A stretch of DNA of 56,349 nucleotides from a virus (UHGV-0011358); one strand, 5' to 3'; positions 48,582 to 52,492 are shown, counted from the stretch's first letter. A program made the numbers and translations. Notes: generated from the sequence alone by a model not told the origin.

Positions 48582-48833
48582 CTAGAAATAGTCCTGTTCC
48601 GTTCCCCAACGGTTGTTTAAATATTCCACCAACCAGATAAAACGCTCGATGCTGATTAGTGGGGCGACCTTGCGATAATGCTTTTCTAATATCAGCCGCG
48701 TAGCTTTATCGCTGTAGCCGTTTTTCTCTACCTCCGCTTTGCGGGCAGAAAGCGCTGCGCGGGCGGCAGCTTTTACGGCATTAAATTGCAGTTCTGACAT
48801 ATTGAACAAAGCCATAGAATCACCATTCATCAC
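48582..48833 (-). CDS. hypothetical protein
   Basis: 83 aa ORF. Confidence 0.4.
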   Translation of the reverse strand: MMNGDSMALFNMSELQFNAVKAAARAALSARKAEVEKNGYSDKATRLILEKHYRKVAPLISIERFIWLVEYLNNRWGTEQDYF

Positions 48834-49056
48834 CCCAATCAGGCGCTACAGTCCAGCAAAAACCAATGAATGCGCTAACAGCCAATAAAGCGCGGGCTGC
48901 AAAAAGAATATTCCCAATGTCGTTAAATTCAGGCAGTGACCACGTAATAAACATAGCCCCCAGCATGATAACACCGATAACAGTCAGGGCCGCCAGGAAA
49001 ACAAAAAGCGTAGCCAAAAGCCACGCCCCCAACCAGTTAAAAAAGCTCTTAACCAT
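48820..49056 (-). CDS. small membrane protein
   Basis: 78 aa, two hydrophobic segments. Confidence 0.4.
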   Translation of the reverse strand: MVKSFFNWLGAWLLATLFVFLAALTVIGVIMLGAMFITWSLPEFNDIGNILFAARALLAVSAFIGFCWTVAPDWGDEW

Positions 49057-49057
49057 T

Positions 49058-49261
49058 TTAAACCTCGTCTATTACACCACCTTGCACGCGTTCCTTAATA
49101 TCCCATGTGTGAGGCTTGCATAATTCTTGATAATAGTGATCAGGCCTGCTGCCGAAATACCATTTACCTTCCATATAAAAATAAACGCCCGAAAATATTC
49201 CGGGCGCTGCCTTTGTTGCTGATTCTGGAATCTTCCATTCTTTATACTGTTTAAACTTCAT
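49058..49261 (-). CDS. hypothetical protein
   Basis: 67 aa ORF. Confidence 0.4.
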   Translation of the reverse strand: MKFKQYKEWKIPESATKAAPGIFSGVYFYMEGKWYFGSRPDHYYQELCKPHTWDIKERVQGGVIDEV

Positions 49262-49442
49262 ACATTAACACCGCCTTTTTAAGTGCGCTCAATTCAAAGT
49301 GCATAAGACGAAAATGCTGTACACCACCAACAATACTGACCTGATAAATATCACCAACGCAGTTATAGTAATAACAACCAAATTGACCGATTCCGGCTAA
49401 TTTAGCGTTATCCGGTATCATGTATTCGCCAACCTTTTTCAT
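49251..49442 (-). CDS. hypothetical protein
   Basis: 63 aa ORF. Confidence 0.35.
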   Translation of the reverse strand: MKKVGEYMIPDNAKLAGIGQFGCYYYNCVGDIYQVSIVGGVQHFRLMHFELSALKKAVLMYEV

Positions 49443-49540
49443 AGATCACCTCATATGGTATTCAATAAACCACCTGATAAACAGGCATAAGGCAATAAAA
49501 CCCCAGCAACAGCACATATAAAACAATGTGTCGTCCATAA

Positions 49541-49759
49541 TTAAGCCTCAATAACACCGTAATCAAATGTGCCTAAATACCGTTCGATACTTACAACTTC
49601 AATACCATCAATGCACCGTTTCCACACAGACACCCGGCTTTCATTTTCCCGGAAGTGCATATTAGAAAGCACTTCATCGGCTGGATAGCCTTTCCCGGCG
49701 ACGTAGGCATCGTGACCTACTCCACCCTCAACACAATAAAGCATTAATTCGCGGGCCAT
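49541..49759 (-). CDS. hypothetical protein
   Basis: 72 aa ORF downstream of a palindromic GATC-containing intergenic region. Confidence 0.4.
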   Translation of the reverse strand: MARELMLYCVEGGVGHDAYVAGKGYPADEVLSNMHFRENESRVSVWKRCIDGIEVVSIERYLGTFDYGVIEA

Positions 49760-49858
49760 CTTGTTTTCCTCCGCGCCGTAAACCTTTTGATTTCAGTTCA
49801 CAAAACGGACATGCGATCACAATACAAAATGTACATTTATGTGATCGCAATCACAATG

Positions 49859-50488
49859 TTAATGAAGTACGCGTTTTTCAGGTTTTGGCATTAGCTGTGC
49901 GTCTTTCCGCGCGTCATTAAGCATAGCGATAGCCGCCTGTACACCTAAATCATTTGCGCGCATATCATTGCCAACCATTTCGCCGTAAAACAATGGCATA
50001 AGATGTTTAACATCTTCTTCTTCGTAGCCGTCATCAACGAACTTCTGTAACGCTTTAGCCTCGAATACTTTTTTCATTACGCCGCGCACAGAATACAGCG
50101 CAACGCTACCCGTATGATTTTCATCTAACGGAAAAATAACAGCACTTCCGAACGCCAGTGGGTCAATTTCTTCCGGCACTGGTACTCGTCCAAATTCTTC
50201 TTCCATGCGTTTTACGAAAGCAAGGCAGAAGACATAACGAGCTACGGCAGTTTTTTCTTCAGCGTTTAAAGACACATAATCGCGGATCGACGCGTCCATC
50301 ACAATATCAACAATCTGCATAGCCAGGTTTAAATCAGCGTCATACGCGCCAGCTTCCATATCTTTTAATACTTCGTGATAATCCTTCGTTTCCACTTCAT
50401 GAAAACTTGCGTCTTCAGTGTAGCGAGTGATTAACATGCCATTGCTGCCGAGTGAATAAGCTGTTTTGATGTCGTTCATGATGTTCAT
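49859..50488 (-). CDS. hypothetical protein
   Basis: 209 aa ORF, no recognised motif. Confidence 0.5.
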   Translation of the reverse strand: MNIMNDIKTAYSLGSNGMLITRYTEDASFHEVETKDYHEVLKDMEAGAYDADLNLAMQIVDIVMDASIRDYVSLNAEEKTAVARYVFCLAFVKRMEEEFGRVPVPEEIDPLAFGSAVIFPLDENHTGSVALYSVRGVMKKVFEAKALQKFVDDGYEEEDVKHLMPLFYGEMVGNDMRANDLGVQAAIAMLNDARKDAQLMPKPEKRVLH

Positions 50489-50492
50489 CCTT

Positions 50493-50825
50493 TTATAGTG
50501 GGTGATGCCATTTCATTTCAGTTTCTGGGTTGAACGGGTTTCCTTCACTTGAAAGGAATAAATCACGCGCCCGTTTTAGCTCTTCCTGGCCTATTTCTAT
50601 TTCATCAATCTGACCGAACGATCCAGGCATCATCCGTTTTAAATCAGATAGCGGGCGCATAAGGCCGCAACCGCGCAACAACATGTCTAACGCGAACTGT
50701 CGCCGCCCAGCTGCATCATTAAAGCGACGCGCCCACGGTACACACACTATCCGGCGTTCGAACTCAATAAATAGTGATAGCTTATTTGTTTCGCTATCAT
50801 AGGCCTTATGTAATTTAATTTTCAT
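50493..50825 (-). CDS. hypothetical protein
   Basis: 110 aa ORF. Confidence 0.45.
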   Translation of the reverse strand: MKIKLHKAYDSETNKLSLFIEFERRIVCVPWARRFNDAAGRRQFALDMLLRGCGLMRPLSDLKRMMPGSFGQIDEIEIGQEELKRARDLFLSSEGNPFNPETEMKWHHPL

Positions 50826-51006
50826 TTAACACCTCAACATATTGTTCAAGATGCCATTTACCCACCTCGTCGTCTTCTTCATCAAATAATGTTACTTGCC
50901 CTCCTGGCCCGAAAGAAAAGGCAGCGACAATAAATTTATAGCCATACCATGTGCGGATCTTTTCGCCGCCTTTCAGGTCTTTAACTTTCACTAATTTTAT
51001 AGCCAT
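50815..51006 (-). CDS. hypothetical protein
   Basis: 63 aa ORF. Confidence 0.4.
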   Translation of the reverse strand: MAIKLVKVKDLKGGEKIRTWYGYKFIVAAFSFGPGGQVTLFDEEDDEVGKWHLEQYVEVLNEN

Positions 51007-51272
51007 ACGCCAAACATCCCATTCAGTCCGGCAAACAATTTCCGCCAGTGGTTTTCAACATAAGCCCGGAACGGCTTAACGCGAACATTGCGGGCCTTCA
51101 GTTCAATATCATCAAAGAAACGCGGCTCTATGATTGTTCCGTCCAGGTATTTAACCAGTAATGGACGTTCGAGATCGTTACACATCTTATTCAGTACAAC
51201 CAGACCAGGGTCATCACGATATTCAGGCAACACGACAAGATCACCAGCCTTTGCATCCCATGTTTTCATCAC
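50997..51272 (-). CDS. hypothetical protein
   Basis: 91 aa ORF. Confidence 0.4.
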   Translation of the reverse strand: MMKTWDAKAGDLVVLPEYRDDPGLVVLNKMCNDLERPLLVKYLDGTIIEPRFFDDIELKARNVRVKPFRAYVENHWRKLFAGLNGMFGVWL

Positions 51273-51510
51273 AGCAACCCTCTAAAAATAAAGCTAACCA
51301 GCGCAGCAAATGCGCCACAAAAAACAACCACAAACAGGAAGCAAATAATGCAAAACGCTACAGTCACAATATCCTTACCGACTTTCATGATTAACCTCAC
51401 ATAGTAGTAATCAGCTTGATGATCGCCACCGTAATATAAAGCGATACGCTAAGATATATTGCCGCGACAGCCAACGCCGCAGCCAATGCGGCAATTTTTG
51501 CAAGGTTCAT
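51270..51510 (-). other. two tandem micro-ORFs encoding hydrophobic peptides (about 39 and 37 aa)
   Basis: MKVGKDIVTVAFCIICFLFVVVFC... and MNLAKIAALAAALAVAAIYLSVSLYI...; the second has a GGGAGG RBS; coordinates approximate. Confidence 0.35.
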
Positions 51511-51514
51511 AAAT

Positions 51515-51979
51515 TTACCTCCCGTGATTATCATGATACCCAAGCGCCTTATGCGCTCTTATGCTTTCCGCTACCGCATCAATTAGTGTTTCAAAAAAAC
51601 CGAAATGCAACCGTTTATAATTAAACCATATTTGCACACGCCACTTGTTAGCGCCTTTATGCCAAGATACGCCAGGGAATAAACCGTTTTTATTTCGTGG
51701 CCTATTTCTTAAGTTTTCAACAGCAGAAACAAGCCTAAGATTCAACAATCTATTATCTGTCTTTATATGATTTATATGGTCAATCTGATACCCTTTCGGA
51801 ATAGGTCCGTTATGCATGATCCATATAATTCTTTGTGCATACTCCTTAAATCCCTTAAATACGTGTACTCTTATATATCTTGTTGTTTTATCAATACTTT
51901 TTGCTTCCCTTAGATTTTTTCTTCTGAATAGCTTCCCGCTGCCTTTGTCGTAAATAAATATTTTATTATAATCAATCAT
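51515..51979 (-). CDS. HNH homing endonuclease (HNH plus AP2-like)
   Basis: QIDHINHIKTDNRLLNLRLV motif; paralog family. Confidence 0.7.
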   Translation of the reverse strand: MIDYNKIFIYDKGSGKLFRRKNLREAKSIDKTTRYIRVHVFKGFKEYAQRIIWIMHNGPIPKGYQIDHINHIKTDNRLLNLRLVSAVENLRNRPRNKNGLFPGVSWHKGANKWRVQIWFNYKRLHFGFFETLIDAVAESIRAHKALGYHDNHGR

Positions 51980-52201
51980 TTATTCACCTTTTGAGATAAA
52001 CTTGTCTAGCCATTTGTTATTAGCCAGCCGTTCTTTGTCATTACCAAAACTGTTTCTGCTTAAAAGCTCCTGTTTTGTTAATTGCGGCCACTTATCCGTC
52101 CACCCAGCCGACGTTTCGAACTCATACAAGCCGCCGTCAAAACAAATAAGCTCATCACGACCGTCAGGAATTTCCTTATCTACTTCTTTTTCTTCAATCA
52201 T
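51980..52201 (-). CDS. hypothetical protein
   Basis: 73 aa ORF. Confidence 0.4.
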   Translation of the reverse strand: MIEEKEVDKEIPDGRDELICFDGGLYEFETSAGWTDKWPQLTKQELLSRNSFGNDKERLANNKWLDKFISKGE

Positions 52202-52213
52202 GATAACACCTCA

Positions 52214-52492
52214 TTAATCGTTAATGACCTGGCCCATACGCCCGCGATATTTGCGCATACGTGGATCGACATATTCAGGCCAGTGCATATCCGGTTTTCT
52301 TTGCAGTGGATAAAAACTTGCCTGCCAGTTGTCGAACCATATTTGTTTTGCGTACAGGTCACTAAATCTTTTTGCGAATCTCTCTGCTGAATCTCCATTA
52401 ATGAAAAAGCCCGCTGCTATTTGCTCGCGGGCATCGTCAATCACCTGAACCATTGTCCGTGGCGGCGGCGGCGATTTTAAATAATCATCCAT
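52214..52492 (-). CDS. hypothetical protein
   Basis: 92 aa ORF. Confidence 0.4.
   Translation of the reverse strand: MDDYLKSPPPPRTMVQVIDDAREQIAAGFFINGDSAERFAKRFSDLYAKQIWFDNWQASFYPLQRKPDMHWPEYVDPRMRKYRGRMGQVIND

Follow-up and report, generated by a model that had tools for sequence, protein, structure and literature searches.

A conserved block of small genes between ssb and dam in a coliphage of the mEp021 group

The mEp021 (mEpimmI) group of temperate coliphages is described as Nus-dependent yet non-lambdoid, with high synteny across 48 genomes (PMC11893012); in human faeces its members are reported to equal lambdoid phages in frequency. Section 3.5 of that source gives as marks of the group the arginines R17, R19, R20 and R24 of the N-like protein Gp17 and the sites nutR1, nutR2 and nutL; nutR1 is placed upstream of the N-like gene, and t2 is listed among the experimentally demonstrated terminators (PMC11893012). 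One protein of mEp021, Ipe ('inducer of pleiotropic effects'), has alternative in-frame products of 83, 82, 77 and 72 amino acids (aa), of which the 77-aa form is active (PMC6379469), and overexpression of this form leads to the release of HlyE-containing vesicles, haemolysis, altered morphology and cell death (PMC11893012, PMC6379469). In phage P22 the mechanism of Abc2 has been described (PMC9836394, PMC12315714), and its residue P68 sits in the active site of the host protein PpiB in RecBCD-Abc2 structures (PMC9836394). Here we analyse a block of small genes, positions 48582-52492, in the 56,349 nucleotide (nt) virus sequence UHGV-0011358, which is referred to throughout as the window.

The best reading of the block is that, in a temperate coliphage of the mEp021 group, it forms a conserved accessory section in the middle of the main early operon. 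We put the probability of this reading, including the transcription and functions proposed below, at about 75%; the reality and orthology of the genes, the HNH insertion and the control elements are observed here. The block is fully coding on the minus strand and its genes are tightly packed or overlapping, with a 99-bp spacer at 49760-49858. It lies between the Dam methyltransferase gene (48030-48578; PF05869, E 5.6e-52), directly downstream, and ssb (52966-53415; PF00436, on the identical gene in the public contig L012), with erf (53415-54056) upstream of ssb. Following transcription, from high to low coordinates, the genes encode products of 92 and 73 aa, an HNH protein of 154 aa, and products of 37, 39, 90, 63, 110 and 206 aa; after the spacer come 72, 30, 63, 67, 78 and 83/77 aa.

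A preliminary description of this DNA had reported about eleven small genes of 63 to 209 aa between ssb and the methyltransferase gene, and the sizes it quoted are borne out: there are eleven minus-strand open reading frames (ORFs) of 83 (77 from the active start), 78, 67, 63, 72, 209 (206), 110, 63, 91 (90), 73 and 92 aa. It had also counted two HNH genes and two micro-ORFs among them. One of the HNH genes is indeed inside the block (51515-51979); the second (52485-52994) overlaps the end of the block by just 8 nt. The micro-ORFs were undercounted, since three conserved membrane micro-ORFs are present, at 49446-49538, 51269-51388 and 51397-51510. Nor does it hold that none of the products is recognised. 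Compared with known families, four of the eleven have recognisable relatives: the 92-aa product matches Abc2, the 83-aa product is Ipe, the 67-aa product belongs to DUF7274 and the 73-aa product is DUF2737-like. The remaining seven match solely PHROGs without assigned function. The ORFs are not all housekeeping phage proteins, which is the outcome that the preliminary description had named as telling against it.

Eight relatives were compared: mEp021, MagusPhagus and six Escherichia coli prophages. The gene content and order are identical in all eight. Every ORF of at least 63 aa is intact in them and matches a PHROG family, and the ratio of non-synonymous to synonymous polymorphism (pN/pS) is 0.11-0.40 for each, at a synonymous divergence of 0.2-0.6; the reference genes dam and erf have values of 0.10 and 0.17. 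The micro-ORFs are also constrained, with pN/pS 0.16 for the 30-aa frame and 0.32 for the 39/43-aa frame. GAGG-type ribosome-binding sites or stop-start overlaps are found at nearly every gene. Being intact in the relatives and under purifying selection, these are therefore real genes rather than chance ORFs. Alternative alleles occur at three positions only, 48820-49056 (78 aa), 49251-49442 (63 aa) and 50815-51006 (63 aa), where identities are, for example, 62-68% against 98-100% among otherwise similar relatives. Such sharply different alleles within a conserved frame indicate gene-sized mosaic exchange.

It is clear from nucleotide identity and synteny that the phage belongs to the mEp021 group. 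The block is 85-89% identical to mEp044, mEp013, mEp010, mEp554, mEp021, mEp515 and MagusPhagus over 78-85% of its length, and prophages that reach up to 92% identity with it occur in 35 of the 5,426 complete E. coli genomes; the tail region has the same relatives, at 86-90% nucleotide identity. The N-like Gp17 is a 96-aa product that reads ...NARERRRIKR..., with R17, R19, R20 and R24 kept, and boxA and boxB sequences occur at three places, upstream of Gp17, downstream of the position of Dcm (nutR2) and in the immunity region. The term lambdoid, used in the preliminary description, therefore does not fit, the closest relatives (mEp021, mEp010/013/044/515/554 and MagusPhagus) being a group that is characterised as non-lambdoid (PMC11893012).

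The exact window sequence is present in public Logan assemblies, at 100% over 8,465 bp in L012 (ERR7738174) and over 1,015 bp in L013 (ERR7737954). With the exact HNH protein of the block on eight contigs in public assemblies, this indicates that the phage has been sampled repeatedly. The CI-like repressor gene (54786-55432) has a 1-bp deletion at about 55270/55271 relative to mEp021 gp15 (GCGCCCGC -> GCG-CCGC), which splits it into an 85-aa ORF with the helix-turn-helix and a 148-aa ORF with the S24 peptidase. The same split is present in the independent assembly L012, at 100% over 8.5 kb, and so is not an error confined to a single assembly. It may be that this phage is a derivative with a clear-plaque or virulent character.

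The control elements place the block within a longer transcription unit. The promoter scan found a sigma-70-like promoter, TTGACT-17-TATATT, on the minus strand at 54661-54633. It is accompanied on the same strand by nutR1, with boxA GCTCTTTAACAA and a boxB hairpin at about 54571-54553, upstream of the N-like gene. Two terminator-like hairpins lie inside genes of the block, a t2-like one at 51483-51461 within the 37-aa micro-ORF and a t3-like one at 49208-49184 within the DUF7274 gene, and TERM_2 and TERM_3 of mEp021 are at the equivalent places. Based on synteny with mEp021, the transcription unit runs on through dam, nutR2, ninF, ninG and a resolvase gene to Q. Within the block the scan gave a single weak minus-strand site (50825-50796, 9 of 12 matches), and promoter-like sites are fewer across the region than in shuffled sequences. 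Taken together, the promoter, nutR1, Gp17, the terminator-like sites, nutR2 and the run to Q indicate that the block is delayed-early and dependent upon antitermination. Its earlier assignment to a lambda-type left operon is not upheld, as such an operon runs from N to int/xis and is separate from Q, whereas this unit leads to Q.

Transcription would start at the sigma-70 promoter near 54.65 kb on the minus strand, and RNA polymerase would be modified at nutR1 by the N-like antiterminator Gp17. The modified polymerase would then read through the t2-like (51.47 kb) and t3-like (49.2 kb) terminators, so that expression of the block would follow that of the kil-like gene, erf and ssb and precede that of dam, the nin-like genes and Q. 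A 40-aa ORF (54053-54175; pN/pS 0.10) lies between erf and the N-like gene, at the place where P22 and lambda have kil. A 'Kil-like protein' is named among the near-core genes of the group (PMC11893012).

The first gene of the block, at 52214-52492 on the minus strand, is the orthologue of mEp021 gp21 and encodes a divergent Abc2-like protein of 92 aa. It matches phrog_656, 'abc2 anti-RecBCD', with E 1.9e-26 over residues 3-92 of 92, and in a pairwise alignment with the DUF2856/Abc2 protein of VSe13, a P22-like phage, its identity is 31% (E 1e-12). The two have in common the C-terminal motif PEY(V/I)DPR(M/L)R.YR.R.G, in which the tail PEYVDPRMRKYRGRMG aligns with PEYIDPRLRNYRSRYG, and P62 aligns with Abc2 P68. 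P62 and the tail motif are invariant in seven orthologues. The gene order erf, ssb, HNH, abc2-like also places it beside an Erf-type annealing protein in an early operon. By analogy with P22 Abc2, the protein most likely binds RecC and reprogrammes RecBCD, which would protect phage DNA ends and favour recombination by Erf and SSB; the RecC binding is inferred from what is known of the family.

Directly after abc2 is the gene for an acidic 73-aa protein (51980-52201, minus strand; isoelectric point (pI) 4.6), the gp22 orthologue, which matches phrog_28542 with E 1.2e-39 and has pN/pS 0.30. It is 27% identical to the VSe13 DUF2737 protein (E 9e-6), with the motif ELL.RNSF in common, and in VSe13 too the DUF2737 gene directly follows Abc2. 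In the Pfam DUF2737 model (PF10930) it reaches 13.1 bits (E 0.093) and the L008 orthologue reaches 18.2 bits (E 0.0024), where the cut-off is 25. Since it is below the cut-off but has the pairwise match and the synteny, it is called DUF2737-like and not a demonstrated member. Where searched, the protein was found solely in mEpimmI phages. These first two genes of the block would extend the recombination module.

The feature that sets this block apart is a free-standing endonuclease gene of 154 aa, HNH154 (51515-51979, minus strand), which encodes an HNH_3 domain (PF13392, E 7.7e-19; 67.5 bits, where the cut-off is 24.8) and a weak AP2-like match (E 0.0033). It is a precise 465-bp insertion. 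In mEp021, MagusPhagus and the E. coli 190 prophage the segment 51511-51975 is missing, with flush boundaries; HNH154 is encoded by none of the eight relatives, and no DNA copy was found in the 5,426 complete E. coli genomes. Its closest proteins, at less than 50% identity, are HNH homing endonucleases, several of them from T1-like phages. The two contigs shown, out of the eight with the exact protein, share this context. The 73-aa gene ends in a TAA that is followed at once by the ATG of HNH154, and the sequence at the 3' end of HNH154, GGGAGGTAA, is the ribosome-binding site of the 37-aa ORF, a site that in the relatives is provided by the end of the 73-aa gene. HNH154 would appear to be a selfish homing endonuclease that was placed exactly between two genes without breaking their translational coupling.

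Two other HNH genes are found near the block. Between ssb and abc2, at 52485-52994 on the minus strand, there is a 169-aa Cys-rich HNH gene, endonuclease VII-like (phrog_2340, E 2.1e-40), the 3' end of which is the abc2 ribosome-binding site. MagusPhagus and the E. coli 190 prophage lack it and, by tblastn, so do seven of the eight relatives, all but mEp021. In mEp021 (L001, MH706966) an intact but unannotated copy of about 170 aa, 55% identical in amino acids, is present at 7450-7965 between gp21 and gp20. At the 3' end of ssb (52966-53013) the stop after the C-terminal DIPF tip, present in all relatives, is lost, and the phage SSB is longer by 15 aa, SPVGLQYGRHRIYAL, reading on into the inserted HNH gene. 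An SSB with a blocked C-terminal tip should bind partner proteins less well. Downstream of the block, at 46550-47077, is a third HNH gene, for a 175-aa HNH_3 endonuclease that is 34% identical to HNH154. The region 46539-47073 replaces a gene of about 760 bp that is present in all relatives and is annotated as a DNA cytosine methyltransferase in mEp021 and several prophages. With an HNH gene in this place, the phage appears to be without the Dcm of its group.

At the other end of the block is the Ipe orthologue, an 83-aa ORF at 48582-48833 on the minus strand (phrog_303, E 5.7e-22; pN/pS 0.11). It is 95-96% identical to Ipe of mEp021, ORF-4, and is directly upstream of dam as it is there; the active 77-aa form starts at 48815, at an internal Met that is residue 7 of the 83-aa frame. 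Homologues at 31-45% identity are found in the early small-gene regions of the T1-like Drexlerviridae. An AlphaFold model, built on an alignment of 25 sequences that included the T1-like homologues, is a three-helix bundle with a predicted local distance difference test score (pLDDT) of 89.7 and a predicted template modelling score of 0.78; a fold search with it returned no informative match. Ipe is a small basic three-helix protein that probably acts on the host, as the mEp021 overexpression phenotype suggests, and by analogy it may perturb the host envelope or host gene expression. A functional link between Ipe and Dam was considered and dropped, as Ipe is not linked to Dam in the T1-like phages.

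Between these ends are eight proteins and three hydrophobic micro-peptides, all on the minus strand, which, judged from their position only, may have group-specific, host-directed early functions. Immediately after HNH154, at 51397-51510, is the 37-aa single-helix membrane micro-ORF, conserved as the peptide MN(L/F)(A/T)KIAAL...LYITVAIIKLIT.M. Its ATG is fixed by the relatives, and both they and the junction sequence identify the 48-aa ORF of the mechanical list as this 37-aa gene read from the conserved ATG. The 39-aa hydrophobic micro-ORF (51269-51388) has a peptide conserved in the eight relatives and is a coding sequence (CDS) in the E. coli UMNK88 prophage; its pN/pS was measured on the 43-aa version, and its stop overlaps the next start as TGATG.

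That next gene encodes the 90-aa gp23 orthologue (50997-51269; phrog_28396, E 2.4e-59; pN/pS 0.19), which in the searches was seen in mEpimmI phages only. Some records label it a 'toxin-antitoxin subunit', a name that was set aside since there is no match at E <= 0.01 in Pfam, NCBIfam or PADLOC, and no sequence match in the PDB. It is followed by a 63-aa acidic protein (50815-51006; phrog_34199, E 1.9e-46; pN/pS 0.30; pI 5.0), the gene of which overlaps both neighbours by 10-11 nt and has two allelic types among the relatives, at 62-67% against 98% identity. Then come the 110-aa basic gp24 orthologue (50493-50825; phrog_34371, E 6.3e-73; pN/pS 0.12), with no match in Pfam, NCBIfam or the PDB, and the acidic 206-aa gp25 orthologue (49859-50479; pI 4.7; phrog_1515, E 5e-52; pN/pS 0.21). 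Among 1.84 billion representative proteins, the family of the latter consists of one full-length 50% cluster and a single relative at 27% identity. No context outside mEpimmI was found for it in the protein search, in a scan of viral contigs with the distant relative or in species-representative genomes.

Beyond the spacer are the 72-aa acidic gp26 orthologue (49541-49759; pI 4.8; phrog_28996, E 2.2e-52; pN/pS 0.14), which has a GGAGG ribosome-binding site, and a 30-aa Cys-rich hydrophobic micro-ORF (49446-49538) that is 83-100% identical in the eight relatives and an annotated CDS in MagusPhagus. The allelically variable 63-aa gp27 orthologue (49251-49442; phrog_37004, E 3e-9) is 43% to 100% identical to its relatives. 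The 67-aa protein encoded at 49058-49261 (phrog_36823, E 4.8e-44) belongs to DUF7274 (PF23939, E 6.6e-8; 32.8 bits, where the cut-off is 24.5). Paralogy between it and the neighbouring 63-aa protein was considered and dropped: BLASTP found nothing between the two, and hhalign gave a weak N-terminal motif with E 0.011 and a probability of 4%. No other paralogy was found inside the block. The last of these proteins is the 78-aa two-helix membrane protein, the gp28 orthologue (48820-49056; phrog_14059, E 7.2e-13), with hydrophobic windows at 4-44 and 46-71 and mosaic identities of 59-100%. Its orthologues carry the RefSeq name 'cell division protein FtsK', for which Pfam and NCBIfam hidden Markov models give no support. 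Two further genes conserved in the group lie downstream of dam, one for a DUF6378 protein (47582-48055), the other for a membrane protein with six helices (47074-47607, phrog_4899).

Could the block be a dedicated anti-defence island, most of its small proteins inhibiting particular host immune systems (restriction-modification, CRISPR or abortive infection, for instance) much as Ocr, Ral, Acr or Tad/Gad proteins do? These are small, early genes with an Abc2-like modulator of RecBCD at their head, and the acidic products (206 aa, pI 4.7; 73 aa, pI 4.6; 72 aa, pI 4.8; 63 aa, pI 5.0) are of the kind that DNA-mimic inhibitors often are. The alternative alleles at three positions could be added to this, as could Dam directly downstream, with Dcm also there in the relatives, which fits an anti-restriction neighbourhood. 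However, beyond the Abc2-like product no host-takeover, anti-defence or defence family was matched in PHROG, Pfam, NCBIfam or PADLOC. Counter-defence loci are usually highly variable, whereas here the same genes in the same order are under strong purifying selection in all eight relatives, and the conservation of Ipe homologues in virulent T1-like phages suggests a general role in the lytic cycle. A general anti-defence island is thus possible but unsupported, and we regard it as unlikely. It is somewhat less doubtful, though still tentative, that at least one of the conserved mEpimmI-only proteins is a new inhibitor of defence or repair, unrelated to known families, or, in a related version, that Ipe is a new host-takeover factor, for example one that relieves the silencing of hlyE. 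As a new inhibitor, the acidic protein of 206 aa and the trio of 90, 63 and 110 aa, with its translational coupling, are the best candidates. From the host-takeover and anti-defence region of the preliminary description there remain an early, antitermination-dependent accessory region and an Abc2-like family that targets RecBCD, a hub of immunity and repair; the lambdoid, early-left framing does not.

It has to be asked as well whether the block is cargo expressed from the prophage, for lysogenic conversion or self-protection, with a toxin-antitoxin pair, membrane exclusion peptides and Ipe as a virulence modulator. The name of the 90-aa orthologue in RefSeq and in the mEp021 record points this way, as do the four small membrane proteins of the block, the report that mEp021 lysogens are haemolytic through Ipe, and the 10-11 nt overlaps of the 90-, 63- and 110-aa genes, which resemble those of toxin-antitoxin operons. 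Against these stand the lack of support for a toxin or antitoxin fold in Pfam, NCBIfam, PADLOC and the PDB, and the single weak internal promoter-like site in a region that has fewer such sites than its shuffles. The genes also lie past terminators in an operon that requires antitermination, and the exclusion function demonstrated for the group is that of a lipoprotein encoded elsewhere (PMC11893012). Prophage cargo is therefore improbable. Least probable by far is that this is an AT-rich spacer in which many of the small frames are open by chance. Their products are short and without database names; in RefSeq most prophages have no entry for the three micro-ORFs, and three of six have none for the 63-aa gene at 49251-49442. 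This explanation is already refuted for the ORFs of at least 63 aa, each with a PHROG match, and these frames together with the 30- and 39-aa micro-ORFs are intact in the eight relatives, where pN/pS is far lower than 1; for the 37-aa micro-ORF the relatives keep the peptide, and ribosome-binding sites and stop-start overlaps are present.

Several points weigh against the preferred reading, an accessory section of the early operon. Eight of the eleven proteins are without experimental knowledge, and the largest, of 206 aa, is without a usable model. For the Abc2 assignment, which consists of one PHROG profile and one pairwise alignment, the Pfam model PF11043 (Anti-RecBCD_p2) gives no hit, and an orthologue reaches 12.5 bits in it where the cut-off is 25; the solved chain of P22 Abc2, 8b1t_A, is matched with an E value as poor as 0.97, and the N-terminal RecC-binding helices are poorly conserved. 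The mobility of HNH154 is inferred from presence and absence alone, with the exact protein in one context only. The report of an mEp021 lysogen that is haemolytic through Ipe is a hint of prophage expression, which a pure antitermination model leaves unexplained. It is also possible that the conserved CRP-like palindrome in the 99-bp spacer could provide additional internal regulation.

This palindrome, TGTGATCGCAATCACA, resembles the CRP consensus and is at 49840-49855, together with a repeated half-site. The spacer is 85-94% identical in the eight relatives, and the GTGAT..ATCAC core is kept in six of them. Exact TGTGA-N6-TCACA sites occur three times in the window, at 41543-41558, 46471-46486 and 49840-49855; with up to one mismatch there are nine sites where 1.66 are expected, a number that none of 100 shuffles reached. 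The three exact palindromes are near gene boundaries of the minus-strand array, in the only spacer of the block, beside nutR2 and further downstream, and the one at 46471 coincides with the predicted TERM_4 of mEp021. They are candidates for CRP sites, sites of a phage regulator or weak hairpins. A second kind of repeated site is found in 28590-42541, where Chi (GCTGGTGG) occurs six times, always on the minus strand; shuffling predicts 1.29 sites, and none of 100 shuffles reached six. This enrichment of co-oriented Chi is notable given an Abc2-like modulator of the Chi response in the same phage.

Other searches across the block and its surroundings added little to the assignments given above. 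NCBIfam and PADLOC returned zero matches for ten products, Rfam found no RNA family across 46-56.3 kb, and among PDB sequences nothing significant was matched by the proteins of 206, 90 and 110 aa or by an Ipe profile. Of the structure-based searches that the preliminary description had proposed, the one with the 206-aa protein failed at the model (AlphaFold2, 17 close homologues, pLDDT 44.8, unusable), and for Ipe the three-helix model was confident but led to no informative fold. The supplements of PMC11893012 contain no per-gene annotation of the block.

These results do not overturn current understanding; their value is in annotation and in the choice of candidates. The block displays the delayed-early gene arrangement of an abundant group of gut coliphages, and it would extend the Abc2-type RecBCD strategy and the pairing with a DUF2737-like protein from P22-like phages to an unrelated phage group. 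The eight conserved uncharacterised proteins and the three micro-peptides form a short list of candidates for anti-defence and host-takeover screens. The HNH insertions are examples of how selfish endonucleases may enter an operon and leave its translational coupling undisturbed.

The accessory genes of the lambda PL operon are small, non-essential, host-directed, N/nut-dependent and delayed-early. The block and the lambda operon (gam, kil, cIII, the ea genes and ral) are alike in being delayed-early and N/nut-dependent, and would also share small host-directed proteins and a RecBCD antagonist. They differ in that no product of the block has a Pfam or PHROG match to the lambda host-takeover families, and the putative antagonist is of the Abc2 type rather than the DNA mimic Gam. 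Unlike lambda PL, the operon in the window leads to Q, and the mEpimmI group is classified as non-lambdoid (PMC11893012). The T1-like Drexlerviridae have Ipe-family proteins, at the identities given above, within runs of small genes as in the window. These phages are virulent, the Ipe homologue is upstream of the terminase genes and not beside dam, and of the window's proteins that were searched, those of 90, 73 and 206 aa were not found there.

The P22-type module (erf, abc1, abc2, DUF2737, HNH), as in VSe13, is closer. The order of Erf-family, Abc2-family, DUF2737-like and HNH genes is common to both, each is in an N-type early operon, and of Abc2 both the proline that contacts PpiB and the motif at the C-terminus are kept. 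In the window, the identity to Abc2 is only 31%, and the Pfam models for Abc2 and DUF2737 are not reached. Here erf and abc2 are separated by an SSB gene, and a counterpart of abc1 or arf was not identified. The HNH genes are unrelated to that of VSe13, and the operon runs to Q and not to int/xis.

The closest described system is mEp021 itself. Its genes gp21-gp29 (MH706966, PMC11893012) correspond to the block one to one and in the same order, between ssb/erf and dam: a putative anti-RecBCD protein, gp22, the toxin-antitoxin ('TA subunit') gp23, gp24, gp25, gp26, gp27, gp28 and ipe. Protein identities are 59-96%, except for gp27 at 43%, with the gp28 orthologue as the 59% allele, and t2-/t3-like terminators and nut sites are at equivalent places. 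Missing from the annotation of the mEp021 record are the gene for DUF7274, that for the 63-aa protein (50815-51006 in the window), the micro-ORFs and the ssb-adjacent HNH gene. Downstream, mEp021 has a Dcm gene where the window has another HNH gene, and it is without the 465-bp HNH insertion that the window has between the gp22 orthologue and the 37-aa ORF. Compared gene by gene, the block therefore corresponds to the published mEp021 genes, with the HNH154 insertion as its unique feature.

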